The notes: a model not told the origin generated them from the sequence alone. A stretch of 32,000 bases of DNA from Acaryochloris marina MBIC11017 (GCF_000018105.1 NC_009925.1:4710001-4742000), one strand, 5' to 3'; counted from the first letter of the stretch, positions 1 to 29,260 are shown. Numbers and translations: made by a program.

Positions 1-588
1 GATAGCCTAACTCTAGCTAATGGTGAATAACCATCTTTCTATAGATGATTTGAAACGTTTTGGCGTCCAAATAACATCATCCTTCAATCCTGAATACAAC
101 AGCTCTGCAAAAATGTTTCCTGTATGTACATTTATGTACATTCCAAAATCAAAGAGGTCTTATGCATTTTTGGTGGAAGAAATTGAGTTCTAAGGTAAGT
201 TATGGCTGACTAGGCGATACATCGGACCGCTAAGCAACCGGTTATTTGAGAAGTTATTTACCCTAACTCCCATCTCAGATCACCAAAAGAGGGCAAGTCC
301 CAATTAGATGCATCCATTGTTAATGGTCTCATCCAGTGAACCTAGTTATCTTAATCTCAAAGCTTGCTGAAGACTCGCATAATATCAGGATTTTTCCTTG
401 ATAATTAGCCGATATCTGTTACGAACACAGCCATGCCTGAACCCTTTACCCTGACAGTCGCTTCTATGATCACAATAAATTCAAGTCACAAACTCAGAAA
501 AGAGATAATGCATCGTGAAAATTGAGGCTAAAGGCCAAATTCCATATCTGATGATTTCTGTTTTATATTCAACATCTGGTGCTAAAAC

Positions 589-1500
589 ATGAATAAGCAA
601 GGTAAATGGTTGAGAGAACCAAAGAATGGCCTTAACGTGGTGTTTATTCATGGGATTCACTCAAGCGATGATTGCTGGAGATCCAAAAACGGGACTTACT
701 GGCCGAATTTACTAAAAGCTGAAGGTGAATTAGATGATATAGGAATCTACTTGTTTTCCTATCAAACTGGATTCAATGCAGGTTCCTATAGTTTGGGGGA
801 CATCGTTGACTCTTTATATGAGCATATAACTAATTTTGATCAGGTCTTGGATAGCGATCGAGTTATCTTTGTGTGCCATAGTATGGGAGGTATTATCGCA
901 AGGCGATTCCTGGTTAGAGAAGAATCGAACTTAATTGATAAAGGACTAAAACGCATTGGTTTGTTTCTGGTGGCATCTCCCTCATTAGGTTCTGATTATG
1001 CCAATATGCTTGCCCTTGTATCAGAATTTTTCGGGTATACACAAGCAAAGACTTTGAAATTTTCCCAGAATAATGTCTGGCTCAATGATTTGGACAATGA
1101 TTTTATTAACCTCAAAGATGCGAATAGATTAAATATTAAGGGGCAAGAACTCATTGAAGCTTTACCCATTAAAATCATTCGTTTCTTTGGCTTCAAAAAA
1201 CAAATTGTGGAACCATTCTCAGGCGCAAGATATTTTGGCAGATCCTATAAAGTAGCTGGTTCAGATCACATCACAATCGCCAAGCCTGAGGATAAATATG
1301 CAGACCAGCATCGCTTACTGATTAATTTCATCAAGGATTTTGAAAAACCCTACAATTTATCTAAAACCCAAGCATCAGAGACACAAGACCTATCAAATCC
1401 CACAAAAAGAGATCAAGAAAATCAAATTAGATTGCAGTTCAATAATGAGATATCTGGTGGGGTAGTAAACCAAGCAGAAACTATCAATATTCAGAATTGA
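589..1500 (+). CDS. alpha/beta-hydrolase fold protein (lipase/esterase-like, SesB/PGAP1 type) with N/Q/G-rich C-terminal tail; candidate effector module of the downstream NB-ARC protein
   Basis: 303-aa ORF. It has VVFIHGIHSS near the N-terminus, the nucleophile elbow CHSMGG (GxSxG) about 70 aa later, then LVASPSLGS. It ends at TGA 1498-1500, which is in frame with ORF 1576..3543. Confidence 0.7.
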   Translation: MNKQGKWLREPKNGLNVVFIHGIHSSDDCWRSKNGTYWPNLLKAEGELDDIGIYLFSYQTGFNAGSYSLGDIVDSLYEHITNFDQVLDSDRVIFVCHSMGGIIARRFLVREESNLIDKGLKRIGLFLVASPSLGSDYANMLALVSEFFGYTQAKTLKFSQNNVWLNDLDNDFINLKDANRLNIKGQELIEALPIKIIRFFGFKKQIVEPFSGARYFGRSYKVAGSDHITIAKPEDKYADQHRLLINFIKDFEKPYNLSKTQASETQDLSNPTKRDQENQIRLQFNNEISGGVVNQAETINIQN

Positions 1501-1575
1501 CTAAAGTCGTCCGACTGGGACCGGACAGAGTTAAATCCCAATATTCATATCCCCAATAATCTTCCCCGTAGTGGT

Positions 1576-3543
1576 GTGATTGCTTTCGAGGGTCGGGAGG
1601 ATCTGCTTACTCAACTCCAAAGCCAGCTCAAGAACAATGAGCTAAGTGGTATCACTGGAGTCAGAGGCATGGGTGGAATCGGGAAAACAGAGCTTGTCCT
1701 CCAGTACGCGATCTCCTGTTTTAACCAACAACTCTATCCTGGGGGTGTTTGTTGGCTTCGGGCGAGAGATCAAGAAATTGCTACTCAAATTATCAGCTTT
1801 GCCAAGGCTAATCTGGGCATCAAACCACCCGATAAACTAGAAACTAAGGAGAAAGTGAAATTCATATGGCAACGATGGCCAGAAGGAGATAGCCTCGTTA
1901 TTGTGGATGATGTCACAGACTATGCTGCTATCGATCCCTATCTACCACCTGCCTCACAGAAATTCAAGATCCTGATTACCACACGCATCAATCTCGGTTC
2001 ATCAGTTACTCAAATAGAGATTGAAAAACTCACTGATCAGGCTGCAATTAAAGTACTAAAAGCCATTGTGGGGAAGGATCGAATAGAGTCACAGCTCACT
2101 TCTGTGAAAACTCTTTGTCAAAAAGTCGGTAATCTACCCCTAGGTTTAGAATTATTGGGACGGTTTCTAGCAAGGAAATTAGATTGGTCTGTTCAAAAGC
2201 TGATTGAAAGACTTGAATCCAAGAAATTAGAAGCGAAAGCCCTCATTGAAACAGAATCAGGAATGACAGCCCGGTTAGGGATTGCCGCTGCGCTGGAATT
2301 GAGTTGGGTAGAGCTAAACGACGCAGAACAGAAACTTGCTTGCTTATTGGGGATGTTTTCTGTCGCTCCCATCTCTTGGCATTTAGTTGAGATGAGTTTA
2401 TCTAAAAAGGATACGGATTGCCTTGAAGAACTCAGAGATGAGGGGTTAATCGACAATAGCTTGCTGAAACGAGTAGGACAAGGCACCTATCAACTCCATC
2501 AAATTATTCAGGAATTCTTTCGAATTAAGTTGAATGAGCGCACTGATAAGGGAGAATCTCTAAAAAAAACTTATTGCAAAGTAATGATTGGTTTTACAAA
2601 GGATATTAGTGACATTCCAACGATTGATGAGATTGATGAGCTGAAGAAAACTATCCCACACCTTGAAGAAATGATTAATCATTGGATTAGTTATCTAGCA
2701 GACGAAGATTTGATCTGGGCATTTGAAGGTATCGGTCGATTTTATGAAGGGCAGGGAGATTTTAGTCTGTCATTATTCTGGAGAAGAAAAGGCGTAAATC
2801 AAACTCAGAAAAAATTAAGTGCTAAGAACCCTGATTATTTACGTAGTCTCAGGCATCTAGGATTGTTTTACTTAAAACTGGGTAATGACAAGGAAGCACA
2901 ACCGCTTTTAGAGAAGGTATTTGAAGAGATAAAAGACTCTGAAGAAGAAGGTGTCTTAGGTATAAGATTACGCAACGATCTAGGAGCACTTTACTTTAGG
3001 CAGGAACGGTTTTCAAAAGCTGAATCATTCTATAATAAGGCACTTGAATTAAGTCAAAAGTCATTATTTAAAGAAAATTCTGATATAGCATCAATCCTCA
3101 ACAACCTTGCAAAAATCCATGAGAAAAAAGGTCTTTCTGAAAAAGCAAAATCTTTATATGATGAAGCTCTAAACCTAGAAGAAATTGGAGATTTTAATTT
3201 CGCACAGATCCTCGATAACTTAGGTAATCACTATAATATGAAAAAACAGTATCGAGAGGCAGAACCTTACTTTGAAAAATCTTTAAAAATAAGAAAGAGT
3301 ACCTTAGGAGAGAAACATCTTAAAGTTGCTGAGAGTCTTAGTAACACTGCTGATAACTATTTTTTTCAAGGACGTTTTCAGGAGGCGGCAAAACTTTTTA
3401 AGCAATCGGCAGCTATTTATGAGGAGTTATTTGATTGCGAATATCACAAAACAGTTGAAGTTAAAAAAAGCTTAGAAATTTGCGATCTAGCGATAAGATT
3501 TTGGTTGATTCGACTAATAATTAAATTGAGATTATGTTTTTAA
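1576..3543 (+). CDS. NB-ARC (STAND) NTPase with C-terminal TPR repeats, bacterial NLR-like protein
   Basis: FEGRE motif, then Walker A GMGGIGKT (1666-1689), Walker B LVIVDDV, ILITTR and the GLPL-type motif GNLPLGLELLG. Several TPR_12-like repeats follow (LNNLAKIHEKKGLSEKAKSLYDEAL, LDNLGNHYNMKKQYREAEPYFEKSL, LSNTADNYFFQGRFQEAAKLFKQS). The called start is GTG with no SD, and the upstream sequence is open in the same frame. Confidence 0.9.
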   Translation: MIAFEGREDLLTQLQSQLKNNELSGITGVRGMGGIGKTELVLQYAISCFNQQLYPGGVCWLRARDQEIATQIISFAKANLGIKPPDKLETKEKVKFIWQRWPEGDSLVIVDDVTDYAAIDPYLPPASQKFKILITTRINLGSSVTQIEIEKLTDQAAIKVLKAIVGKDRIESQLTSVKTLCQKVGNLPLGLELLGRFLARKLDWSVQKLIERLESKKLEAKALIETESGMTARLGIAAALELSWVELNDAEQKLACLLGMFSVAPISWHLVEMSLSKKDTDCLEELRDEGLIDNSLLKRVGQGTYQLHQIIQEFFRIKLNERTDKGESLKKTYCKVMIGFTKDISDIPTIDEIDELKKTIPHLEEMINHWISYLADEDLIWAFEGIGRFYEGQGDFSLSLFWRRKGVNQTQKKLSAKNPDYLRSLRHLGLFYLKLGNDKEAQPLLEKVFEEIKDSEEEGVLGIRLRNDLGALYFRQERFSKAESFYNKALELSQKSLFKENSDIASILNNLAKIHEKKGLSEKAKSLYDEALNLEEIGDFNFAQILDNLGNHYNMKKQYREAEPYFEKSLKIRKSTLGEKHLKVAESLSNTADNYFFQGRFQEAAKLFKQSAAIYEELFDCEYHKTVEVKKSLEICDLAIRFWLIRLIIKLRLCF

Positions 3544-3629
3544 GGTTGTGAAGAATGTCTATTTTTGTAGACTTCAAATTATGAGTAATTATCTAACATG
3601 AATAGCTAGTAAACCTGAAAGTCATTCTG

Positions 3630-4295
3630 GTGGGGGATATTCATGTGGGTAAAAAAAGCATTGAGTGGATAAAAACTAGATTCCCAGATCAGGTTATTTA
3701 TGTGTTGGGTAATCATGAGTACTACGGCAGGGCCTTTCCCAAGCACATTCAGGATCTTAAGCAATTGATCGCAGATACAAATATCCACCTTTTGGAAAAT
3801 GATTGCTTAGTCATCAATGACGTGACATTCCTGGGGTGTACTTTATGGACAAACTTTAAATTGTTTGGTGAACCCAAAATTGCGGGCTACGAGGCGACTC
3901 AGACCATGACGGACTACCGTAAAATTCGTGTGAGCCCGGACTATCGTAAGCTGCGATCCCTTGATACGGCTATCATTCACCAAAAATCCTTGAGCTGGTT
4001 GTCTGAAGAGATCAAGCAGCTCAAGACGATGCGGAGCAAAGTTGTAATTGTGACGCACCATGCCCCCAGTAAACGTTCCATTCCCCATCCCTACCAAGAG
4101 GATATGTTGAGTGCGGCCTACGCTTCACATCTGGACCCGTTTGTTGCAAACTCCCACGCAACAGTATGGGTTCATGGTCATGTCCATGAAGAATATGACT
4201 ATGCCATCGGCAATACGCGGGTGATTTGTAATCCCAGAGGTTACCCAGATGAACCTAATGAACGTTTTATCCCTGATCTTGTGATTGAAATTTGA
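3630..4295 (+). CDS. calcineurin-like metallophosphoesterase
   Basis: Motifs GDIHVG, GNHEYY, VTHHAP and GHVHE occur in canonical order. The true start is uncertain: the frame is open from 3606, and CTG 3615 would give MKVILVGDIHVG. Confidence 0.8.
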   Translation: MGDIHVGKKSIEWIKTRFPDQVIYVLGNHEYYGRAFPKHIQDLKQLIADTNIHLLENDCLVINDVTFLGCTLWTNFKLFGEPKIAGYEATQTMTDYRKIRVSPDYRKLRSLDTAIIHQKSLSWLSEEIKQLKTMRSKVVIVTHHAPSKRSIPHPYQEDMLSAAYASHLDPFVANSHATVWVHGHVHEEYDYAIGNTRVICNPRGYPDEPNERFIPDLVIEI

Positions 4296-4318
4296 CCGCC
4301 ATCAAAGGCGGTTTATAT
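4295..4318 (+). terminator. candidate Rho-independent terminator after the metallophosphoesterase
   Basis: ACCGCC (4295-4300), loop ATCAAA, GGCGGT (4307-4312), then TTATAT. It overlaps the TGA stop. The T-tract is short. Confidence 0.4.
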
Positions 4319-4357
4319 CATCCGCAGAAATTTTGCTCTTTCCGATGAAATGAACCC

Positions 4358-5056
4358 ATGGCTAATTCAGCACTGACGCTTCCCTATTTCGATCTGATTC
4401 TGAAACAACTCGACCAGGGCGACGCTATTTTTGAGCAAGCTTTTGGTCGCCATGTTCATTGGGGCTATTGGGCCAATCCAGATCAGGCTACCTATACGGC
4501 CAAGGATTATGGGGCCGCAGCAGAGCAAATGAGTGTTGAAATTTATTCTGCGGCTCAGGTACAAGACCATCAAACCATTTTGGATGTGGGGTGTGGTGTA
4601 GGGGGCACCGTAGCCAGCTTGAATGAGCGTTTTACGAACGTCAGTTTATTGGGGCTGAATCTGGATGAACGTCAGCTAGCCTATGCCCAACAAACAGTGA
4701 CTGCTCGGCCAGAAAACACCATTGAGTTTGTCCAAGGGGATGCTTGTGCGCTGCCCTTTGCCGATCAATCGGTAGATGCGGTGTTAGCGGTTGAGTGTAT
4801 TTTTCACTTTCCAGATCGCAAGCAGTTTTTGCAGGAAGCGTTGCGGGTGCTTAAACCAGGCGGTTGGTTGGCGATTTCTGATTTTGCACCGTTTGAAATG
4901 GAAGGATGGCCCGCTTTTTTATGGCAGTCAAATCCTGTCTTGCCTAGTTTCTATGGATCGTTTGATGTCACCTACACCCTTCAAAAATATCGGATTTTGT
5001 CTGGGCAGGTTGGCTTTGGGGCAATGCAGTCTAGTATTCCGTCAAAGATTTATTGA
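4358..5056 (+). CDS. class I SAM-dependent methyltransferase (Methyltransf_11-like), 3' end disrupted by IS630-family insertion
   Basis: Motif I ILDVGCGVGG, acidic loop LGLNLDE, post-I GDACALPF and LKPGGWLAISDF. The last ~8 codons (SIPSKIY*) are read from the IS terminal repeat. The original C-terminus continues at 6246..6424. Confidence 0.85.
   Translation: MANSALTLPYFDLILKQLDQGDAIFEQAFGRHVHWGYWANPDQATYTAKDYGAAAEQMSVEIYSAAQVQDHQTILDVGCGVGGTVASLNERFTNVSLLGLNLDERQLAYAQQTVTARPENTIEFVQGDACALPFADQSVDAVLAVECIFHFPDRKQFLQEALRVLKPGGWLAISDFAPFEMEGWPAFLWQSNPVLPSFYGSFDVTYTLQKYRILSGQVGFGAMQSSIPSKIY
5034..5045. repeat. IS630-family terminal inverted repeat (end next to transposase stop)
   Basis: GTATTCCGTCAA matches the reverse complement of 6232-6243 at 10 of 12 positions and is preceded by TA. 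Confidence 0.7.
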
Positions 5057-6174
5057 TGGGTAAAGTCTGTGTAATTTGACCCTGGCATCTTGCGTCGTGA
5101 ACCGCCAGTCAATCCATGTTCCCTTTTGGTTTCGGTGCTCATTCCAAGCCCTCACATGCTTTTGTAAGGTTGGAAAATCAGCAATGCGTTGATCTAAACA
5201 TTGACGAGACAGGATACTTAATTCAATCTCAGCCATATTGAGCCAGCTTCCATGCTTGGGGGTGTAGAAAAATTCGAACCGAGATAAAAGTCTCCTGGCT
5301 TCTTCAGGTTCAAAAGCTTTGTAGAGTGAGGAGGGGGAGTGAATATTGAGATTGTCTTGAACCAGCGTGAGGGTGTGGGCCTCAGGGTAAAACACATCCA
5401 CTAATTCTTTGAGTAGATGAGCATAGTCAATGGCAGTTCGTCGTTGAGTTACTTTCACATATCGCGTGCCTACTATTGGCTCACACAACATAAAGAGATT
5501 GGCTGTGCCCTTACGTTCATACTCATAGTCAACACGTTCGGGTTGACCACGTTGAGCCGCGATGGGTAGAGTGATTTCCTCAACCAATTGCTTGGTGGCT
5601 TCATCCAGACAAATCAAAGGATTCCTCAAGTCATAAGGACGCTCATAAACCGTTAAGAGCTCCTCCATTCGCCAGACAAATTCTGCATTCTGCTGTGGGG
5701 GGATGACCCAACAGGTCTTTCGCCAAGGCTGCAACTCGTTTTTTTTAGAGTTTGTCGGACACTCTCATGACTGAGGTGGTCGATGTAGCCTAATTCCACC
5801 ATCTGGTCTGCGAGTAAGCGTAATGTCCAGCGAGCATGACCAACGGGGGGTTCACTGCAGCGTAAGGCAATCAGATGAGCTTCTTGTTCTCCTTGTATTT
5901 TTCGCTTTCGACCTGCCCCAGAACGTTGATTGATAGCAGCTTCAAGGCCTTCTTCCACAAATCGCATACGCACCCGCTCAATTGTGCGTATGCTGACACC
6001 TATCGCTTCATGAATTTCTCGATCACAGCAACCACCATGAGTTTGGTTAGTATCCGCTTTCAGAAGAATGCGGGCATGATTGATTTGCCGAGCACCTCGT
6101 TTTCCCGTGAACGTGAAATTCTTGAGATACTGTTGCTCTGGCTCACTCAGAGTGACGATGTACCGTTTACCCAT
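5042..6174 (-). CDS. IS630-family transposase, HTH ORF (6174..5653) joined to DDE ORF (5734..5042) by a programmed -1 frameshift
   Basis: ORFA begins MGKRYIVTLSEPEQQYLK and has HTH regions, with AGGAG 6 nt upstream of the ATG. ORFB carries DDE_3-like motifs (CLDEATK, LVQDNLNIH, YTPKHGSWLNMAEIE). A slip on the A8 run gives TLKKNELQPWRKTCWVIPP, the typical IS630 junction. Confidence 0.85.
5739..5746 (-). other. A_AAA_AAA -1 frameshift slippery site (A8 run on minus strand)
   Basis: The minus strand reads ACT CTA AAA AAA ACG in the ORFA frame. The -1 frame continues AAC GAG TTG CAG CCT TGG into the DDE ORF. Confidence 0.65.
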
Positions 6175-6231
6175 GACGTTCTCCTAGAATGCGTCCATTT
6201 CATTCTAGAAAATATACCTGTCAGTCTTTTC

Positions 6232-6243
6232 TTGACTGAACAC
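6232..6243. repeat. IS630-family terminal inverted repeat (end upstream of transposase start)
   Basis: TTGACTGAACAC is the reverse complement of GTGTTCAGTCAA and is followed by TA 6244-6245. Confidence 0.7.
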
Positions 6244-6245
6244 TA

Positions 6246-6424
6246 GGGATGTGACTCAAAATACGCTGCCTACCTATGGATTTTTTCAGCGACTGCCCCT
6301 GGCTATTGAGATTTCACCGGATTTATTACCTGCGATCACACAGACACTACTGCTCGAAGGCACGAGTCGTTTAGGCTTACTTCGCTATATGATTTTGTCG
6401 TGGCAAAAGCCTGACAGCCGCTAA
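6246..6424 (+). pseudogene. displaced 3' remnant of the methyltransferase gene 4358..5033
   Basis: Removing 5034-6245 (IS plus one TA copy) joins ...GFGAMQS to RDVTQNTLPTYGFFQRLPLAIEISPDLLPAITQTLLLEGTSRLGLLRYMILSWQKPDSR*. That adds 59 open codons ending at TAA 6422-6424. Confidence 0.7.
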
Positions 6425-6425
6425 G

Positions 6426-7346
6426 TTATCCCTTTCTCCGAGGATCGATGGAGATAAGCTTAGAATTGATTTCGACATTCTGGGGTCGCTGAATATTCCA
6501 AGCCAAACCCAACATTTGTAAACTGCGAATTAACCACCAGCCTGGATCTACTTGATGAGAACCATGCCCTAACCGAGCTGAGTTAGGAAAGGCATGGTGA
6601 TTATTGTGCCAACATTCCCCCATAGTGAGCAATCCCAAGCCTGGGACGTTATAGCCTTGCACCCCTGCGCCATCAATATGCCAATCACGATGGCCCCATC
6701 GATGGGCAAAATAGCCCACAAGCCAGTGCCCAGTGACACAAACACTCACGCGGACGCAGATTCCCCAGGCCACCCAAGACCAACCTCCAATGATGTAGAA
6801 CACCATTCCCCAAGGCACCTGCTGTAAAAATCGAGTTTTCTCTAACCATTTGTAGAACCTGTTAGTTGCGACCCGCCTTTCATAGTGGATGGCCGGGGGG
6901 TATCGCAAATACAGATCGCAATGCAACAGCCAAAACCAGTCTTTGCAGAGGTTCTGGCGGCTGGCAAAATAATCATGACAGTGAGGGTGCCGTTGCGCCC
7001 AGTCACGCAGCTCATGCATTCGGATAATCGAAAATGGCCCCGCAAACCCCATCAAGGTGCCGCAGTAGACCATGGCTTGTTCTAACCATTGAGGACAGTC
7101 AAAACTGTTATGAATTAAGCGACGATGCATACCCACTGAATGCCCCGCACAGAGGGTGATCACGCTGGTGACGGCAAACAGTAGAAACGCATCGCCTGAA
7201 AAGGTCAGTGGTCCACCGATCAGCGCTCCTAGATACATGCTGCTGATCCAAGCTGATTTTTGAGGAGACCAGCGGACCTGGCCCAAGCAAGGATCAACTT
7301 TGAGATCGCAAGCTTGAATTCTGGCGATATCATGGGCAGTGTTCAT
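6426..7346 (-). CDS. membrane fatty-acid desaturase family protein (acyl-CoA/acyl-lipid delta-9 type, divergent)
   Basis: His boxes GHSVGMHRRLIH and WHNNHHAFPNSARLG, plus AHRWGHRDW, with hydrophobic segments between them. The second His box is atypical. Confidence 0.7.
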   Translation of the reverse strand: MNTAHDIARIQACDLKVDPCLGQVRWSPQKSAWISSMYLGALIGGPLTFSGDAFLLFAVTSVITLCAGHSVGMHRRLIHNSFDCPQWLEQAMVYCGTLMGFAGPFSIIRMHELRDWAQRHPHCHDYFASRQNLCKDWFWLLHCDLYLRYPPAIHYERRVATNRFYKWLEKTRFLQQVPWGMVFYIIGGWSWVAWGICVRVSVCVTGHWLVGYFAHRWGHRDWHIDGAGVQGYNVPGLGLLTMGECWHNNHHAFPNSARLGHGSHQVDPGWWLIRSLQMLGLAWNIQRPQNVEINSKLISIDPRRKG

Positions 7347-7494: not shown

Positions 7495-8589
7495 ATGGCA
7501 CGATCCCTGCGAGTCACCATCGACAACCTGCCGAAAGTGAAACTGGCTTTGCAACGAAACGGGTATCCCAGTCAAAAGGCCTTCGCCGCCGACATTGGCC
7601 CGTCCCTCTCCACCGTCAAGAATTTTCTGGGCGGTAAACCCATTGACTACGAAAACTTCCGCGAAATCTGCGATCAATTGGGGTTGGATTGGCAAGCGAT
7701 TGCCTACACAGAGTCCCCATCGGCACTGGATGCTCCACCTGCTGCCCTGAAAGCGTCACCGTTTATCACCGGGACACCCATTCACCATCCCCGTCATTTC
7801 TTTGGTCGAGAAAGACAGCTCAAACGCTGCTTTACCCTGCTCAAACACCATCCATTGCAGAATATGGCGATCATGGGTCCACGGCGGTCAGGTAAAACCT
7901 CGTTTCTCCGCTACCTAGAGACCATCCCCACGACTGCACCGGATCAACTGCGACCCCACCAAAAGCAGAATTGGTTGCCTCGTCCAGATCTCTACAACTG
8001 GATTTTCGTTGATTTTCAAAATGCCCGCATGTCCAGCCAGGATAAACTACTAGGCTATTTACTATCGGCCCTCAGTTTGCCAGTTCCCGATGCCCTGGAT
8101 TTAGATGGCTTTATGGATCGGGTCAGTGGTGCCGTCCATCAGCCCACCGTCATCCTGCTAGATGAGATTGGGGTGGGTTTGCAGCGATGTCCTGAGCTAG
8201 ACGATGCCTTTTGGGAAAGTCTTCGGTCTTTAGCCACAAATCAAACGGCGGGCAATTTGGCCTTTGTTATCTCTGCTCCAGAGACACCCATGGAACTGGC
8301 CCAACATAGCGGATTTAGCTCGCCCTTTTTCAATATCTTTGGCTATTCCACGACATTAGCCCCTTGGCAGCAGCAAGATACCTTAGATCTCATTGCAAGT
8401 TCACCGATTCCCTTTACGGACGCGGATCAAGCTTGGATTTGCCAGCAGAGTGGGGGCTGGCCGTTTTTGGCTCAAATTTTATGTTCTGAACGTTTGTTTG
8501 CCTTAGAAAATGACGAAACCGGGACAGCATGGCAAGTCGAAGGGTTGAAACAGATTGAACCCTATCGATATTTGTTGGATCAGAAATAA
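7495..8589 (+). CDS. HTH-domain protein fused to a STAND/AAA-like ATPase (AAA_35 / Arch_ATPase-like)
   Basis: N-terminal XRE-like HTH (QKAFAADIGPSLSTVKNFLGGKPIDYENFREICDQLGLDWQ), then FFGRERQL, Walker A GPRRSGKTSFL (GKT at 7891-7899), Walker B VILLDEIG and GGWPFLAQILC. Confidence 0.7.
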   Translation: MARSLRVTIDNLPKVKLALQRNGYPSQKAFAADIGPSLSTVKNFLGGKPIDYENFREICDQLGLDWQAIAYTESPSALDAPPAALKASPFITGTPIHHPRHFFGRERQLKRCFTLLKHHPLQNMAIMGPRRSGKTSFLRYLETIPTTAPDQLRPHQKQNWLPRPDLYNWIFVDFQNARMSSQDKLLGYLLSALSLPVPDALDLDGFMDRVSGAVHQPTVILLDEIGVGLQRCPELDDAFWESLRSLATNQTAGNLAFVISAPETPMELAQHSGFSSPFFNIFGYSTTLAPWQQQDTLDLIASSPIPFTDADQAWICQQSGGWPFLAQILCSERLFALENDETGTAWQVEGLKQIEPYRYLLDQK

Positions 8590-8591
8590 CG

Positions 8592-11405
8592 GTGTCGCGC
8601 TTACAGGGCTATACCCATGCTCCGCCCCTGCATCCCAACTTAGTTTTGGGGAGTTTGCATCTACTCTGTTGGTTCTTCTTCCATCCTTCGGCCTGGAAAC
8701 ATCACCTGCGCTCCATCAATCTGCGCCCTGATTTTTGTCTAGCGGAGATCAATTGGAGACAACCCCAGCCCTCAGCGCTCAAACGGTTGTTGATACAAGG
8801 GTATGTAATTCTGCCTCTGCTGGTTGGGGGTGTTGTTGGTCTGGGGCTATGGGGATTAAGTGTTTCTGGTGCTGATATGGCCTTTGGCATGGCAGTGGGC
8901 ATGGCTGCAAGTGTCGCTGGCAGCTTAGCTGGGGGAATGGTGGTGGGCGTCGCCGTTAGTTTGGCCAGCAGTTTTATCAGCGGGATTGTGGTGGGACTCC
9001 TATTTGGGGTCATGCTGGGAACAACCACCCTCGCCGAGCTGGGTTGGGGGTTGGGGTCAGCTGCAGCGAGTGTGGGGGTGTTGCAGAGCTTTATTCACCC
9101 GGTGTCCTTGGTGGGGATTAATGCCTCGAATGTGGCGGCTAGTGTAGCTGTGAGTTTGTCGCCTCGAAAAAGCGATCTCATTCCCGTATCGCAAAAACTA
9201 GGTGGTGCAGTGTTGGGGATTGTCCTGAGCCTCAGCGGTCTATGGGCGGTGGCCCAAGCAACAACGCAGCTTCTCCGGCCGGGTGCAATTCCACTTAACA
9301 CCGTCTCTTTTGCCCTTTTAGGGTTGGGAATGGGGTGCTTTTACGGTATTGCCCTGGGATGGCGAACGCAGCGATGGCGGATTGCAATCCCAATGTGCCT
9401 TGGTTTAGGAGCCTTCATTGGCACAGCAGTGGGACTGGGCTTAAACGTTAACAGTGCTGTGGTTCGGGGTATGGTGATTGGCGGTGGTAATGCCGCACTC
9501 TTAACCACCTTATTTGCTCTGCCCTATGTGCTGACGGAATCCATCGCTGGTCCTTGGATTGCCGCAATTGTGGGCACCATTGGCAGCGGCGGCGTGTATA
9601 TCATTTTTGCCAGTCTGATTGGTGGGCTATCCCTGCAACTGACGTTACCGATAAGCCTGGTTTGCATCGCTTTGGGATTAACGATGGCCCAGTGGCGACC
9701 TATTTTGCTATATCCCGTACAAATCTTGTGGAATCAGTGTCTGTATCGCCTCGATACCCAAAGAACGGAGCATCAATCTAGCGTCCTACGATGGCATACG
9801 GTGTTCTGGGATGAGTTTCAATATCTGCCGTTAGTCGGGCTAGATCAGCATTTAGTCCTGGCTCTGGAGAGTTGGGCACAAGAGGGACAAGCGGCCATCG
9901 ACTTTATTGATCGCACACCGCAACGATGGGCGGCTCACCAGGCTCAAGTGGAGCTGAATATTCGTAAGTTAGAGCAATGCAGAACAATCGCAGATATCTG
10001 CCAGGTTCAGAAGACGATTCTGGGTGAAGCAACGGAGGAGAGTCATCTATTCCGTATCTGTCAGCAGATCAGTTTGGATGTGGATGCCGCCCTACAGCAA
10101 AGGAGTTCCTACAATCAGCGGTTGGCTCTGAGCGCGGTCTTGGAACGATTGGATACTCAACGGCAGGTGATACGAGGGGATGCGGTCTATGTCCCGCGGC
10201 CAGCAAATAACGACTATCGCATCGCCGGATTCCGCACTATTTTTCAGGCCTGGCATCAGATCATTGCCCAACAGATTGAAACCCTCCAAACCGAGACGGA
10301 CCAGAACCAAGAAATTGACTCGCCCTACATTATCGGTATCCCTTTAACTGGGCAACAGGCGCTGTTTGTTGGTCGGACGGATATTAGCCAGCGAATTGAA
10401 CAGCTCGTGCGCGATGATCGCAGTCCGGCTTTGTTGCTGTACGGGCAGCGACGCATGGGCAAAACGTCATTGCTCAATAATTTAGGGCGTTTGCTCCCCC
10501 AGACGATTATTCCCTTATTTGTGGATTTGCAAGGGTCAGCATCACGGGCTCAGGATCACACGGGCTTTTTATATAACCTAGCCAAAGCCATGTCAGCCGC
10601 TGCAAAACAGTATCGAGGCGTTCAATTTCCCCCTTTGGAACGAAGCGATTTGGCGGTTGATCCTTTTACCCAGTTTGAAGAATGGCTAGATGAAGTAGGG
10701 GTGCTGTTGGGCAATCGGACGGCATTGCTAGCTCTAGATGAGTTTGAAGTTTTAGTGGGTGCCTTTGAGCAGGGAAGATTTGACGAATCTGCCATTTTGG
10801 GAATGCTACGTCATCTCATTCAGCATCGCCCTCAGTTTAAGGTATTGCTCTCGGGCACTCATACTCTGGAAGCATTCAAAAGTTGGGCTAGCTATTTGAT
10901 TAATCTGCAAGTGGTTCCAGTCAGCTATTTGACGGAACCAGAAGCGCTGCAGCTGATCACAAATCCCATCCCTGAATTTGAGTTGCAATACGAGCCTGAT
11001 GCGGTACAGCGGGTGATAGCACTAACCCACTGCCATCCTTTTTTGATCCAACTGCTTTGTGCTGAAATTATTGCCCTGAAAAATGAGCAGGGCATCACGA
11101 TCCGCCGATGGGCAACCTTGGCAGATGTGGAAGCAGCGGTTCCCCAAGCTTTGACCAGTGCCAGTTTCTTCTTTACCGATATTGAGCAAAATCAAGTCAG
11201 TGTAGACGAATTAGCAATTCTGAAATATATGGCAGCTCGGGGAGAAGGGAATGCTATTACCGCTAGCGACTTAAACCAATATCTAAATAAACCAGTAGAT
11301 AGCCTAATGCGTCACTTGAGACAGCAAGACCTCATTCAATCTGTAGATGGAGGGTATTGCTTTCAGGTGGAGTTGATTCGGCGGTGGTTTGCAAAGGTCT
11401 CTTAG
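8592..11405 (+). CDS. multi-pass membrane protein fused to a STAND/AAA-like ATPase paralogous to ORF 7495..8589
   Basis: GTG start 2 nt after the upstream TAA. Residues ~60-390 form many Gly/Ala/Val-rich hydrophobic segments. These are followed by a helical middle region, FVGRTDIS, Walker A GQRRMGKTSLL (10455-10469), Walker B LALDEFE, HCHPFLIQLLC and a C-terminal wHTH-like tail. Confidence 0.7.
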   Translation: MSRLQGYTHAPPLHPNLVLGSLHLLCWFFFHPSAWKHHLRSINLRPDFCLAEINWRQPQPSALKRLLIQGYVILPLLVGGVVGLGLWGLSVSGADMAFGMAVGMAASVAGSLAGGMVVGVAVSLASSFISGIVVGLLFGVMLGTTTLAELGWGLGSAAASVGVLQSFIHPVSLVGINASNVAASVAVSLSPRKSDLIPVSQKLGGAVLGIVLSLSGLWAVAQATTQLLRPGAIPLNTVSFALLGLGMGCFYGIALGWRTQRWRIAIPMCLGLGAFIGTAVGLGLNVNSAVVRGMVIGGGNAALLTTLFALPYVLTESIAGPWIAAIVGTIGSGGVYIIFASLIGGLSLQLTLPISLVCIALGLTMAQWRPILLYPVQILWNQCLYRLDTQRTEHQSSVLRWHTVFWDEFQYLPLVGLDQHLVLALESWAQEGQAAIDFIDRTPQRWAAHQAQVELNIRKLEQCRTIADICQVQKTILGEATEESHLFRICQQISLDVDAALQQRSSYNQRLALSAVLERLDTQRQVIRGDAVYVPRPANNDYRIAGFRTIFQAWHQIIAQQIETLQTETDQNQEIDSPYIIGIPLTGQQALFVGRTDISQRIEQLVRDDRSPALLLYGQRRMGKTSLLNNLGRLLPQTIIPLFVDLQGSASRAQDHTGFLYNLAKAMSAAAKQYRGVQFPPLERSDLAVDPFTQFEEWLDEVGVLLGNRTALLALDEFEVLVGAFEQGRFDESAILGMLRHLIQHRPQFKVLLSGTHTLEAFKSWASYLINLQVVPVSYLTEPEALQLITNPIPEFELQYEPDAVQRVIALTHCHPFLIQLLCAEIIALKNEQGITIRRWATLADVEAAVPQALTSASFFFTDIEQNQVSVDELAILKYMAARGEGNAITASDLNQYLNKPVDSLMRHLRQQDLIQSVDGGYCFQVELIRRWFAKVS

Positions 11406-11426: not shown

Positions 11427-13265
11427 CTAAGTCGAGGGATTAGAAGGAGGGAAATACCCTCTGGGGGTAATCATCCAATCCTGGTGAAACCGAGTGGTGG
11501 CATTGCCGATAATCACGGTGCTGAGCATATCTACGGGCAGCGTATCCAGCTCTGATAGCGTTCCCAGATGAGTGGTTTGGTCTGGACGATAGACCGATCT
11601 CACCACGGCTACGGGGGTTTGTGGATCTCGATGTTGCAAACAGATTTGCTGGGCTTTGAGTAGATGTTCGATGCGTTTTTGCGATCGCGGATTGTACAGA
11701 GCCATGACAAAATCAGCAGCAGCGGCAGCCTCTAGGCGCTTTTCAATCACGGACCAAGGGGTGAGCAAATCACTGAGGCTAATGGCGCAAAAGTCATGCA
11801 TAAGGGGCGTACCCACTTGAGAAGCAGCTGCTTGCAGAGCAGAAATTCCGGGAAAAATTTGGACGACTGGGGTCTGCCCATCCCAACCATTCTGCTGTAG
11901 TGCTTCCATCACTAAACCGGCCATGCCATAAATACCAGCATCACCCGAAGAAATCACGGCAACAGTCAGGCCCCACTGAGCTAAATCGATGGCCCGTTGG
12001 GCGCGTTGGCGTTCTTGGGTAATGGGGGACGGTTCAATGATTTGACCAGGACGAAACTGCGATCGCACCAAGTCCACATAGAGGGTATAGCCAATCACCA
12101 CATCTGCTTGGGTAATGGCCGTTTTGGATGCAGGAGTCATTTGGTCCAGGTCACCAGGTCCCGTTCCTACTAGAAGCAGTTGCCCCCTACGCCCGGTATA
12201 TTCTTGTTCAGCTTGAGCAATGGCAATGGTGACCGCTCCAGGTTGTGCCGGGTCTTTGAAGATTTGCTTGGTTGCCAGGAGGGTGAATTGCTGGGCAGCT
12301 TTAAGGGCAGCGGCTTCAGCCACGCTGGGGGTGCCCACTTCAGCCTTAACGACATCGGAAGGGGTGGGGACTGCTACGGCTTTTAAGTCTTCAGGGGAGT
12401 AGCATTTTAGAGGCCAGTTAGCCTGTTGGCAGAGATCCACTAACCCGACTTCATCGGCTTTCAGGTCTAGGGTGGCAACCCCAGCAATGGCTTCCCAAGC
12501 CAGTTGATGTTGTTCACAGACTTGTCGCAGGGCCTGTTCCATTAGCTGTCGGGAGGTGCCTCGCTCGCAGCCCATGCCAACCCAGAGAACGCGGGGATGC
12601 CATTGGACGCTGGATTGTTTTGGGGATAGGACTTTGGGGCTGATCCAAATTTGGGGCGCTTCAGTATCGCTAACGAATTGATAGGTGTGAGATGGGGGTA
12701 AATGAGCTTGCCATAGTTCGGAACCAGCGGCTTGGTGGACAGTGACAGTTTCACCTCGGGCAATGGCTCCAGCGATAGCGTTCCAATCACCAGCCCCTCG
12801 TTGCCAGCCGAAGGGGATGCCGAGGGTATCAATGCTAGGCAAGTTAGCGGCATTACTGGCCCCGGTGAGGATAGGGGTGGCCCCGATTTGTTGGGCGAGG
12901 AGTTGGGTAAGTTGATCCGCTCTCCCCAGGTGACCACTGCAGAGGCTGAGCACGAATTGGCCGGGTTCATCAAGGACGACAACGGCAGGATCTTGGGATT
13001 TGTCGGTTAGGAGGGGGGCGATTAGGCGGACGACGGCTCCGGTTGCAAGGCAACAGATCAGACCCTGATGGTCGTTCCACAAGGTTTGGAGATGGTCTTT
13101 GAGGGAGCCGCTATAGGCTTGGGTGTGAGGTAGGTGGGAGAGGGAGGCAGGGACCCAAAGGGTGGCTCCGGTTTGTTGACAGAGGGGATGGAGGGTGTGG
13201 ACGGCGTTGGGGGTGGTGGCGATGGCGGCTAAAGGCTGGAAGGTTTGAAACAAACGTTGACTCAA
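11427..13265 (-). CDS. cobJ: bifunctional CbiG (cobalt-precorrin-5A hydrolase)-like / precorrin-3B C17-methyltransferase (CobJ/CbiH) fusion
   Basis: The N-terminal two thirds are CbiG-like (VVVLDEPGQFVLSLCSGHLG, LWVGMGCERG). The C-terminal part is a tetrapyrrole methylase (LLLVGTGPGDLDQMT, VISSGDAGIYGMAG). The start is TTG. Confidence 0.85.
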   Translation of the reverse strand: MSQRLFQTFQPLAAIATTPNAVHTLHPLCQQTGATLWVPASLSHLPHTQAYSGSLKDHLQTLWNDHQGLICCLATGAVVRLIAPLLTDKSQDPAVVVLDEPGQFVLSLCSGHLGRADQLTQLLAQQIGATPILTGASNAANLPSIDTLGIPFGWQRGAGDWNAIAGAIARGETVTVHQAAGSELWQAHLPPSHTYQFVSDTEAPQIWISPKVLSPKQSSVQWHPRVLWVGMGCERGTSRQLMEQALRQVCEQHQLAWEAIAGVATLDLKADEVGLVDLCQQANWPLKCYSPEDLKAVAVPTPSDVVKAEVGTPSVAEAAALKAAQQFTLLATKQIFKDPAQPGAVTIAIAQAEQEYTGRRGQLLLVGTGPGDLDQMTPASKTAITQADVVIGYTLYVDLVRSQFRPGQIIEPSPITQERQRAQRAIDLAQWGLTVAVISSGDAGIYGMAGLVMEALQQNGWDGQTPVVQIFPGISALQAAASQVGTPLMHDFCAISLSDLLTPWSVIEKRLEAAAAADFVMALYNPRSQKRIEHLLKAQQICLQHRDPQTPVAVVRSVYRPDQTTHLGTLSELDTLPVDMLSTVIIGNATTRFHQDWMITPRGYFPPSNPST

Positions 13266-27952: not shown

Positions 27953-29260
27953 ATGGTTGTCAGCAGAGGTAAAACACCATCCGCCCAAGAAACCTTTATG
28001 CAAATGGCCCAGGCAGCTGGGCTTAGAGGTCGGGTCTTTATCACCCTGGGACTGTTGATTTTGGTCCGGTTGGGTATTCGTCTTCCGGTTCCAGGTATCA
28101 ACCGTGCTGCTTTTACATCAACCTTTGCTGGCAACCCTGTCTTTGGCTTTTTAGACTTCTTCTCTGGTGGTGGTTTTTCTGCCCTAGGGATTTTTGCTTT
28201 AGGGATTATTCCCTTTATTAATGCCTCGATCATTTTGCAGCTGTTGACCGCTGCATTGCCATCCCTGGAGCGTCTACAAAAAGATGAAGGGGAAGCGGGT
28301 CGCCGCAAAATTTCCCAAATCACTCGCTACGTGGCTTTGGGATGGGCCATTATCCAAAGTACTGGATTTGCCATCTTAATCAATAGTGCCGAGGGTGTTG
28401 TGTTCAATCCCGGCATTGTGTTTATCGTTCAGATGGTGGTGGCCTTAACGGCTGGCTCCATGTTTGTGATGTGGGTTGGTGAATTGATTACGGAGAGAGG
28501 AGTAGGAAATGGCGCTTCTTTGCTCATCTTTTTGAGTATTGTTTCGGGTCTACCTAGCACCTTAGGCAATGCGTTGCAGATTGCTGAACAAGGCGAGGTC
28601 TCTAAAGTCATCATCTTGATTTCTGTTTTCATCTTGATGATTGTCGGCATTGTGTTCGTTCAAGAAGGCACTCGCAGAATTCCTATTGTCTATGCTCGCC
28701 GCCAAGTGGGACGACGAACCTATCAGGAACAGAAGAGTTATCTGCCCCTCCGCTTAAACTCTGGTGGAGTGATGCCCATTATTTTTGCCTCGGCTATGCT
28801 GATTTTGCCCGGCACCTTGGCGGGGCTAACGAACAATGCAACTATCATTGAGTTTGCTGGATATTTAAGTCCCAATAGTTCTCTACCTTGGGTCTATGTG
28901 ATTTTCTATCTGTCGATGATTGTCTTCTTCAGCTACTTCTACGCATCTTTGGTGGTTAACCCCATTGATATGTCCCAGAACTTGAAGAAGATGGGGGCCA
29001 GTATTCCAGGGATTCGTCCTGGGCGGGCAACGACAGAATATGTTGAAAAGGTTTTGAATCGATTAACGCTGTTGGGTGCTTTCTTCTTGGGAGCCGTTGT
29101 GTTGGTTCCAGTGGCCGCCGAGAGAGTGGTTGGTGGCGGTATCTTTTCTGGTTTTGGTGCAACATCACTTCTGATTTTGGTGGGTGTTGCGATTGATACG
29201 GCTAAGCAAATTCAGACCTATGTGATTTCCCAACGGTATGAAGGGATGGTGAAACAGTAG
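27953..29260 (+). CDS. secY: preprotein translocase subunit SecY
   Basis: 435-aa multi-TM protein with ALGIIPFINASIILQLL and ITERGVGNGASLLIF. Confidence 0.97.
   Translation: MVVSRGKTPSAQETFMQMAQAAGLRGRVFITLGLLILVRLGIRLPVPGINRAAFTSTFAGNPVFGFLDFFSGGGFSALGIFALGIIPFINASIILQLLTAALPSLERLQKDEGEAGRRKISQITRYVALGWAIIQSTGFAILINSAEGVVFNPGIVFIVQMVVALTAGSMFVMWVGELITERGVGNGASLLIFLSIVSGLPSTLGNALQIAEQGEVSKVIILISVFILMIVGIVFVQEGTRRIPIVYARRQVGRRTYQEQKSYLPLRLNSGGVMPIIFASAMLILPGTLAGLTNNATIIEFAGYLSPNSSLPWVYVIFYLSMIVFFSYFYASLVVNPIDMSQNLKKMGASIPGIRPGRATTEYVEKVLNRLTLLGAFFLGAVVLVPVAAERVVGGGIFSGFGATSLLILVGVAIDTAKQIQTYVISQRYEGMVKQ

Follow-up and report, generated by a model that had tools for sequence, protein, structure and literature searches.

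A 32,000-nt stretch of DNA from Acaryochloris marina MBIC11017 (GCF_000018105.1 NC_009925.1:4710001-4742000; hereafter "the window", meaning the whole stretch analyzed) carries, at 589-3543 on the + strand, an open reading frame (ORF) for a 303-aa alpha/beta hydrolase followed in frame by an ORF for an NB-ARC and tetratricopeptide repeat (TPR) protein of the NOD-like receptor (NLR) type, with a single TGA (1498-1500) between the two. We found the same stop and the same RNA layout at more than 55 effector/NB-ARC junctions from diverse cyanobacteria, and we propose, with a probability of about 0.6 on the strength of sequence comparison, that the window stop is a programmed UGA readthrough site. 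The conserved stop and the first stem of the RNA behind it almost certainly represent a real, selected feature, as their pattern of conservation and covariation indicates. That they belong to a widespread cyanobacterial recoding device, in which a minimal pseudoknot 8 nt after UGA would yield from one gene a motif-bearing death or defense effector (hydrolase, TIR or pore-forming Bell domain) plus a rare effector-NLR fusion, seems to us slightly better than an even bet. The junction comprises the following features:

589-1500 (+): ORF of the short product, an alpha/beta (serine) hydrolase effector of 303 aa with Pfam matches, ending at the conserved TGA
1435-1497 (+): C-terminal N/Q/G-rich motif QFNNEISGGVVNQAETINIQN, putatively of the amyloid-signaling type, preceded by a disordered linker from ~1405 (AlphaFold model and homologous junctions)
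1498-1500 (+): in-frame UGA followed by CUA, the proposed readthrough site, conserved across junction loci
1501-1508 (+): 8-nt spacer CUAAAGUC between the stop and stem 1
1509-1526 (+): stem 1, GUCCG (1509-1513) paired with CGGAC (1522-1526) around the 8-nt loop ACUGGGAC (1514-1521), identified by covariation
1516-1540 (+): proposed stem 2 of an H-type pseudoknot, loop bases UGGGA (1516-1520) with UCCCA (1536-1540), across an A-rich connector (1527-1535)
1501-3543 (+): proposed readthrough extension of 680 codons, comprising a leader, an NB-ARC domain and a TPR array (Pfam NB-ARC, TPR_12 and TPR_10)

An in-frame stop and RNA element at effector/NB-ARC junctions

Across the stop, the window translation reads ...NNEISGGVVNQAETINIQN*LKSSDWDRTELNPNIHIPNNLPRSGVIAFEGRED... 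The nearest homologues of the hydrolase (78% and 68% identity) are likewise 303-305 aa long and end at the same place, and on their contigs the hydrolase ORF runs into a TGA, beyond which the same leader and NB-ARC region continue in frame, with no ATG, GTG or TTG between the TGA and the P-loop Met. An identical junction also stands behind unlike effectors, including a 140-aa helical protein (L003), a TIR domain (L005) and a 138-aa protein (L006); upstream effectors are hydrolases, TIR proteins or, in most other loci, Bell-like proteins of 125-160 aa. Every upstream ORF at these junctions terminates in an N/Q/G-rich, beta-prone stretch of the same motif class, which we assign to the amyloid-signaling type from sequence and to which we attribute potential amyloid behavior. 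Neither this motif nor the recoding element figured in the preliminary description of the locus.

We surveyed the distribution of the junction in two ways. A species-wide scan of one genome per species was queried with the NB-ARC N-terminal region and was thus unbiased toward the junction; upstream of the P-loops, this arrangement recurs in Leptolyngbyaceae, Rhizonema, Myxacorys, Phormidesmis, Synechococcales and other cyanobacteria. A scan of metagenome DNA used a pattern that fixed non-stem bases only (TGAC, loop GG and ARAG) and left the stem bases free, and all 43 of its 43 matches were effector-ORF/TGA/NB-ARC junctions. Annotated Acaryochloris plasmids hold more copies, which RefSeq records as separate coding sequences (CDSs), placing the NLR start at an internal codon. 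Two of them, one hydrolase-type and one Bell-type (2710-3672 and 6207-6680), occur on plasmid pMB04 of Acaryochloris sp. 'Moss Beach' (L133) next to a HigA antitoxin gene. The two loci are almost identical in junction RNA and in terminal motif (...ISGGEV[Y/F]QGENITINKTT), and such near-identical junctions behind different effectors suggest effector cassette swapping.

At junctions outside the pattern selection, the stop was TGA in 13 cases, TAG in two and TAA in none, with one further locus bearing TGG, compared to TGA use by only 5 of the 18 long ORFs of the window (binomial 3e-6, with kinship among junctions ignored); elsewhere in the window TGA works as an ordinary stop. Both TAG variants (L020b and L052) come from one long-read metagenome-assembled genome (MAG). 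At L020 (4785-4943), a 37-aa ORF that is barely more than the N/Q/G motif leads through TAG and the element into an NB-ARC ORF, and readthrough there would restore a canonical motif-NLR protein. At L052 (3460-4015), a Bell-like ORF stops at 3963 in a frame other than that of the TAG and element at 3968, an offset that may reflect an indel error of the long-read MAG or a decaying locus.

The RNA behind the stop follows a constant plan. Across 48 distinct junctions, 34 of which derive from the metagenome pattern that fixed TGAC, loop GG and ARAG, the sequences align without gaps over 60 nt and the stop-to-stem spacer is invariably 8 nt long. The stop is followed by this spacer (usually CUR-RAG-UC), a 5-bp stem, an 8-nt loop with a central GG(G), an A-rich tract (AAAG...) and a C-rich tract. 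Stem 1 is paired in 98.8% of alignment cells and shows compensatory changes in three of its five pairs, such as pair 25-40 (UA 27, CG 14, GC 4) and pair 27-38 (CG 23, GC 13, UG 9, UA 3). RNAalifold independently recovers this stem. For both stems taken jointly, the covariation score was 0.371 versus 0.180 in shuffles (reached by 0 of 500), and shifting the partner by one column lowered pairing from 85% to at most 54%. The amino acids encoded by the two arms of stem 1 vary radically (S-S...R-T, S-P...R-A, S-A...P-P), indicating that selection acts on the RNA and not on the peptide. The window has a single match to a covariance model built from stem 1 (1486-1545, 62.8 bits, E = 1.4e-14), and 35 loci of non-cyanobacterial groups, Actinobacteria and Chloroflexi among them, have none.

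Pairing of the loop with the C-rich tract would add stem 2. Its column pair 32-54 is GC in 35 sequences, GU in five, AU in three and CG in two, and the compensations AGGA/UCCU, CGGA/UCCG and AGGC/GCCU are achieved via synonymous Pro codons. A helix of 4-5 bp is possible in nearly all sequences, and with a flexible register the helix score was 4.07 versus 3.84 for permuted loop/tract combinations, 16 of 2000 of which reach it. These alignments give moderate support to the proposal that stem 2 may form an H-type pseudoknot in the element. The proposed recoding device is absent from Rfam and from the literature searched: no Rfam family reached its gathering threshold anywhere in the window, and no family, selenocysteine insertion sequence (SECIS) models included, matched 1300-1800 at E up to 10.

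Proposed translation across the stop and competing explanations

Starts for a separate receptor gene are scarce at these junctions. In 40 of 58 junction loci, no ATG, GTG or TTG occurs from the stop to the conserved FxGR that opens the nucleotide-binding oligomerization domain (NOD), and in the remaining loci, where a start precedes FxGR, its position is not conserved. In the window, the first in-frame start after the TGA is GTG 1576, which is not conserved among relatives. The codon after the stop encodes Leu in most loci (CUA, CUG, once CUC), with ATG, GTG and AAG once each. In most loci the stop is followed by C, and in E. coli no termination context is weaker than UGA-C.

The segment between stop and NOD nevertheless evolves as coding sequence, despite having no start, as judged by its substitutions. 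Differences in linker codons 14-28 fall 391/416/692 by codon position, with 37% of differing codon pairs synonymous, and this third-position excess resembles that at the NOD start (826/512/1711); the ten structure-forming codons show no such excess (223/102/180). At L033 (575-634), from Trichodesmium sp. MAG_R03, the element is kept (stem GUCGG/CUGAC) with TGG at the stop position, and the locus is thus a single ORF for a hydrolase-motif-W-NB-ARC/NLR fusion. Tryptophan is the residue expected from near-cognate UGA decoding by readthrough-prone tRNAs (2019 recoding review). Natural all-in-one hydrolase-NLR proteins exist (P0022, L029 and L033), and such a fusion is therefore viable.

A canonical two-gene pair gives a further comparison. 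In L018 of Egbenema sp. (3253-6310), where a 175-nt intergenic gap separates effector and receptor genes, the motif NYGGTNYQV.TG..NTN.F occurs twice, at the Bell-like C-terminus (...NQTNYGGTNYQVKTGVDNTNFF...) and at the NLR N-terminus (MNDQTNYGGTNYQVNTGENNTNVFY...). The junction-type locus L030 carries the same motif once only, before its TGA. In canonical NLR fragments the motif is joined directly to K-LTPTK...FVGRE; a 9-residue LESSxxERT segment that follows the stop in junction loci such as L097 is absent from them, and therefore seems to exist for encoding the stem. In the window we found no second motif copy between the stop and the NOD at the NLR N-terminus, and no conserved start there. 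With a single motif copy and no start for the NLR, the motif would therefore reach the junction-locus NLR only through readthrough.

From this arrangement we infer a scheme in which 589-3543 would be translated as one unit of an NLR-type conflict system in cyanobacteria; readthrough, the amino acid inserted, templating by amyloid and any defense role are all proposed parts of it. Most ribosomes would terminate at UGA 1498-1500, producing the 303-aa serine hydrolase with its disordered, motif-ending tail, and the pseudoknot 8 nt past the stop would allow some ribosomes to insert an amino acid at UGA, probably Trp, and proceed into the NB-ARC and TPR region, generating a rare long hydrolase-motif-NLR isoform. 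Oligomerization of the TPR/NOD sensor would cluster the long-isoform motifs, which could then seed a cross-beta fold able to recruit the abundant short isoform and switch it on. With one motif copy shared between them, sensor and effector would necessarily have identical motifs. Two other candidates were rejected: a -1 frameshift, given that the ORFs share one frame and a slippery heptamer is lacking, and a promoter at the stop with a -35-like TTGACT, which has no -10 box 17 nt downstream.

Several observations weigh against readthrough. Folded alone, the window element is no stabler than shuffles (z = -0.86) and its minimum-energy fold differs from the proposed one; because the single-sequence fold is not significant, the structural evidence depends on covariation. 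G-rich loops and Pro-coding C-tracts pair even after permutation, which leaves stem 2 a modest margin. Many junction sequences are related and their counts are not independent events, so that the statistics overstate independence. A profile search with the 46-aa leader for more sense-codon fusions returned 12 short fragments only and was uninformative. Structured-RNA-stimulated readthrough of a cellular gene is not yet established in bacteria, and for bacterial translation systems the 2019 recoding review has just two entries, Q-beta A1 and B. subtilis SacB. Finally, L005 has ATG and L006 has GTG right after the stop, which makes termination-reinitiation possible in those two lineages.

Extended to all junctions, reinitiation would imply two cistrons, with the RNA structure holding the terminating ribosome for a restart at or near the next codon and an NLR made without effector or motif. 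In its favor, the ORFs always abut, and RefSeq annotates them as separate CDSs. However, the stop is usually followed by CUA, CUG or CUC, and once by AAG; bacteria use none of these as starts, CUA is as frequent as CUG, and no conserved start lies downstream. Moreover, the NLR would be without the motif that its canonical relatives have N-terminally, and the TGG variant is a fusion. We consider general reinitiation unlikely. We regard as quite unlikely a variant in which effector and NLR are independent genes, the NLR being translated from scattered non-canonical or internal codons and the hairpin serving as an mRNA processing, stability or regulatory element, or as a recombination hotspot for effector swapping. 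Different effector domains before near-identical junctions, as in the two pMB04 loci, and the weak single-sequence fold are in keeping with this idea, which leaves unexplained the strict frame, the fixed 8-nt spacing, the TGA bias, the Leu codon and the coding-type evolution of a linker without a start.

The preliminary description implicitly treated the TGA as a nonsense mutation that had broken the gene and was to be repaired to a sense codon. Compatible with a pseudogene are the lone in-frame TGA, the start that gene callers give the NLR at its P-loop Met, and the presence of another damaged gene in the island. Yet more than 55 loci, from many cyanobacterial genera, have the stop at an identical codon position, and it is conserved across diverged loci along with an RNA structure that co-varies; the ORFs behind it are intact over 600-1200 codons and under coding constraint, and protein divergence of 40-60% rules out recent copies of one dead element. 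We consider a pseudogene highly improbable. Least credible is decoding of UGA as selenocysteine, with the stem-loop and its loop G residues soon after UGA acting as a SECIS-like hairpin: the TAG variants (L020b and L052) speak against it, the sole sense variant is TGG and not Cys, the residue would lie within an interdomain linker that AlphaFold predicts to be disordered, and no Rfam model, SECIS included, matched even at E = 10.

The hydrolase, the receptor and the surrounding island

Further features of the two proteins and of the downstream region are as follows:

637-654 (+): VVFIHG, within the hydrolase ORF
874-891 (+): nucleophile elbow CHSMGG with the predicted catalytic Ser98; C96, H97, S98, M99, G100 and G101 are invariant in 50 homologues
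~1597-2238 (+): NB-ARC domain with P-loop GMGGIGKT (1666-1689) and Walker B LVIVDD (Pfam and reading of the translation)
~2809-3456 (+): TPR array (Pfam)
3606-4295 (+): 5'-truncated metallophosphoesterase remnant, with homology from residue 26 of ~250-aa homologues and motif I absent
4294-4313 (+): GC-rich hairpin, a possible terminator (-12 kcal/mol, z = -3.3) with a weak U-tract

Pfam assigns the hydrolase to Abhydrolase_6 (1.5e-9, 39.2 bits, cut-off 26.3) and DUF676 (3.2e-7, 30.5 bits, cut-off 20.3), with PGAP1 (22.8, cut-off 24.3) and likewise LCAT slightly under their cut-offs. The translation of 1501-3540 matches NB-ARC (2.5e-17, 63.4 bits, cut-off 23.5), TPR_12 (1.3e-40) and TPR_10 (5.9e-28). 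These profiles bear out the preliminary description's view of an NLR-like conflict module combining a SesB-type hydrolase with NB-ARC and TPR, and the VVFIHG and CHSMGG patterns that it pointed to are present at 637-654 and 874-891. D226-H227 is invariant or near-invariant among homologues and may, with S98, belong to a candidate Ser-Asp-His catalytic machinery. The AlphaFold model of the hydrolase has a confident core up to about residue 268, and residues 273-303 have a predicted local distance difference test (pLDDT) score below 50. A fold search with this model returned generic alpha/beta hydrolases only, with phospholipase PlaB as the top local match, and so assigns no substrate; a lipid or ester is the candidate. 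Sequence searches of the PDB with the hydrolase and with one Bell-like effector found nothing useful, and Pfam matched no family in the Bell-like effectors.

On the receptor side, the TPR-coding part (2701-3543) has a GC content of 0.337 versus 0.423 for the NB-ARC part, and the protein terminates in an unusual hydrophobic tail, ...AIRFWLIRLIIKLRLCF. The AT-rich TPR end and this tail may represent a recombined or decaying sensor end. NCBIfam gave generic TPR or SARP-like partial matches only for the window proteins. In PADLOC, the hydrolase matched DUF626_VIII (1.6e-8), the NLR a generic TPR model and the phosphoesterase PDC-S10 (6.8e-8), with no known family among the three proteins. Membership in an Avs-like or other known antiphage system, as earlier suggested, does not follow from these weak candidate or unnamed models, none of which is an Avs model.

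A metallophosphoesterase ORF does begin at GTG 3630, 86 nt past the NLR stop on the same strand, as previously described, and had been counted as a possible third member of the module. Homologues from an exhaustive HMMER search are about 250 aa long, with window residue 6 aligning to homologue residue 26. They open with MKIQVLSDLHxEF (motif I, DxH, metal ligands), a segment that the window copy is without; it opens instead at the motif II region (LVGDIH), right after an in-frame stop. A search across the window for the missing 5' part and motif I did not find it, and tblastn of the phosphoesterase against 130 related loci (0.93 Mb) returned 0 homologues. A functional three-gene module including the phosphoesterase is not supported by these results. 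The same truncated copy occurs in a second Acaryochloris genome (L131). The phosphoesterase was probably truncated when the adjoining AT-rich island arrived, possibly by insertion into the gene itself. Co-transcription with the hydrolase and NLR ORFs is possible. As for the terminator that had been placed behind it, the hairpin at 4294-4313 is indeed stable, but its U-tract is weak and a consensus terminator scan did not list it.

The AT-richness of the locus reported in the preliminary description holds: GC content is 0.37-0.39 over 1-3543, compared to 0.499 over 6175-32000, and the 0.449 of the phosphoesterase places it between the AT-rich island and the remaining window. About 1.5 kb downstream, counted from the NLR stop and past the phosphoesterase remnant and a methyltransferase gene, comes an IS630-like insertion sequence element. 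Its transposase (5042-6174, - strand) is split into two overlapping ORFs, HTH_32 (5653-6174) and DDE_3 (5042-5734), and is either a frameshifted copy or one needing programmed frameshifting. A low-GC island adjoining such an element and a truncated gene is compatible with horizontal acquisition, and to that extent supports the origin first suggested for the locus. Identical proteins are present on Acaryochloris chromosomes of 6.50 and 6.42 Mb.

Farther downstream, two neighboring + strand genes (7495-8589 and 8592-11405) match AAA_16 or nSTAND1-type NTPases and no PADLOC family; the pair may be a second conflict locus of the STAND (multidomain signal transduction ATPase) type a few kb from the first. 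Housekeeping surroundings include a fused CbiG/tetrapyrrole methylase gene (11427-13265, - strand) and SecY (27953-29260, + strand). No tRNA or tmRNA genes were found in the whole window.

Comparison with known systems

Programmed readthrough of stop codons is a familiar phenomenon in viruses and eukaryotes and almost undocumented for bacterial cellular genes (2019 recoding review). If our proposal is correct, these junctions would be the first family in which structured RNA stimulates programmed readthrough of bacterial cellular genes, with signals of about 45 nt each that are backed by covariation and span several genera. They would also constitute a third NLR architecture besides all-in-one proteins and two-gene amyloid pairs, one that guarantees identical templating motifs in sensor and effector and fixes the sensor:effector ratio. 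As to annotation, dozens of cyanobacterial 'tetratricopeptide repeat protein' genes have been called with starts inside the P-loop region.

The stop, 8-nt spacer and H-type pseudoknot of murine leukemia virus (MuLV) gag-pol, which set a fixed ratio of a short product to a long one that is extended C-terminally, offer a precedent for the signal. This gag-pol readthrough signal was reportedly described by Wills in 1991. The window element resembles it in having a stop, an 8-nt spacer and then a proposed H-type pseudoknot; unlike MuLV, which has UAG, a far larger pseudoknot, and eukaryotic ribosomes and release factors, it has UGA and stems of 5 bp and 4-5 bp in a bacterial cellular gene. Readthrough in MuLV is about 5% (2019 recoding review). 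Coliphage Q-beta A1 likewise extends a protein through a leaky UGA on bacterial ribosomes, at a few percent, in a phage gene rather than a bacterial cellular one. To our knowledge, no stimulatory downstream pseudoknot of this kind has been described for Q-beta A1.

Among amyloid-signaling systems, the junction loci resemble the Bell and bacterial amyloid signaling sequence (BASS)-NLR gene pairs of multicellular bacteria (Dyrka et al., 2020, bioRxiv 10.1101/2020.01.06.895854). There, a Bell, hydrolase or TIR effector carries the motif at its C-terminus, and the NLR encoded next to it has a further copy at its N-terminus. Junction loci and BASS pairs share adjacent effector and NB-ARC/TPR genes, an N/Q/G-rich, beta-prone motif of about 20-25 aa at the end of the effector, a repertoire of Bell, alpha/beta hydrolase and TIR2 effectors, and occurrence in cyanobacteria. 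Unlike BASS pairs, which have two motif copies and an NLR with its own start, junction loci have one copy, no NLR start, and an in-frame stop with conserved RNA. Searches for motif pairs, including that of Dyrka et al. (2020), would miss such single-copy loci; neither that paper nor Kaur 2020 mentions a stop codon or readthrough, and further full-text literature on such systems yielded nothing relevant. The Bab/Agp system of E. coli also has adjacent genes for a sensor and a pore-forming effector, which share an amyloid motif and can cause abortive infection (bioRxiv 10.1101/2024.11.07.622273), but it consists of two genes with two motif copies, its sensor is not NB-ARC/TPR and it involves no recoding.

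Avs and bNACHT proteins match the proposed long isoform in combining a STAND NTPase with an N-terminal effector and C-terminal repeats, although the window proteins, unlike Avs, match no PADLOC Avs or NLR model. DUF676, PGAP1 and Abhydrolase_6 are among the N-terminal domain profiles of fungal NLRs (PMC9815663), and the window locus, like fungal SesB-type NLRs and SesB/het-eN clusters, links a hydrolase of this kind to a NOD and repeat receptor, a likeness of Pfam profiles and not direct SesB homology. Fungal SesB systems link effector to receptor in all-in-one proteins or via an amyloid motif, whereas here the system is bacterial, the receptor is NB-ARC and TPR, and the link would be a recoded stop. 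An NLR-like module with a SesB-type hydrolase is thus of a described kind, and the junction signal is what sets this one apart.

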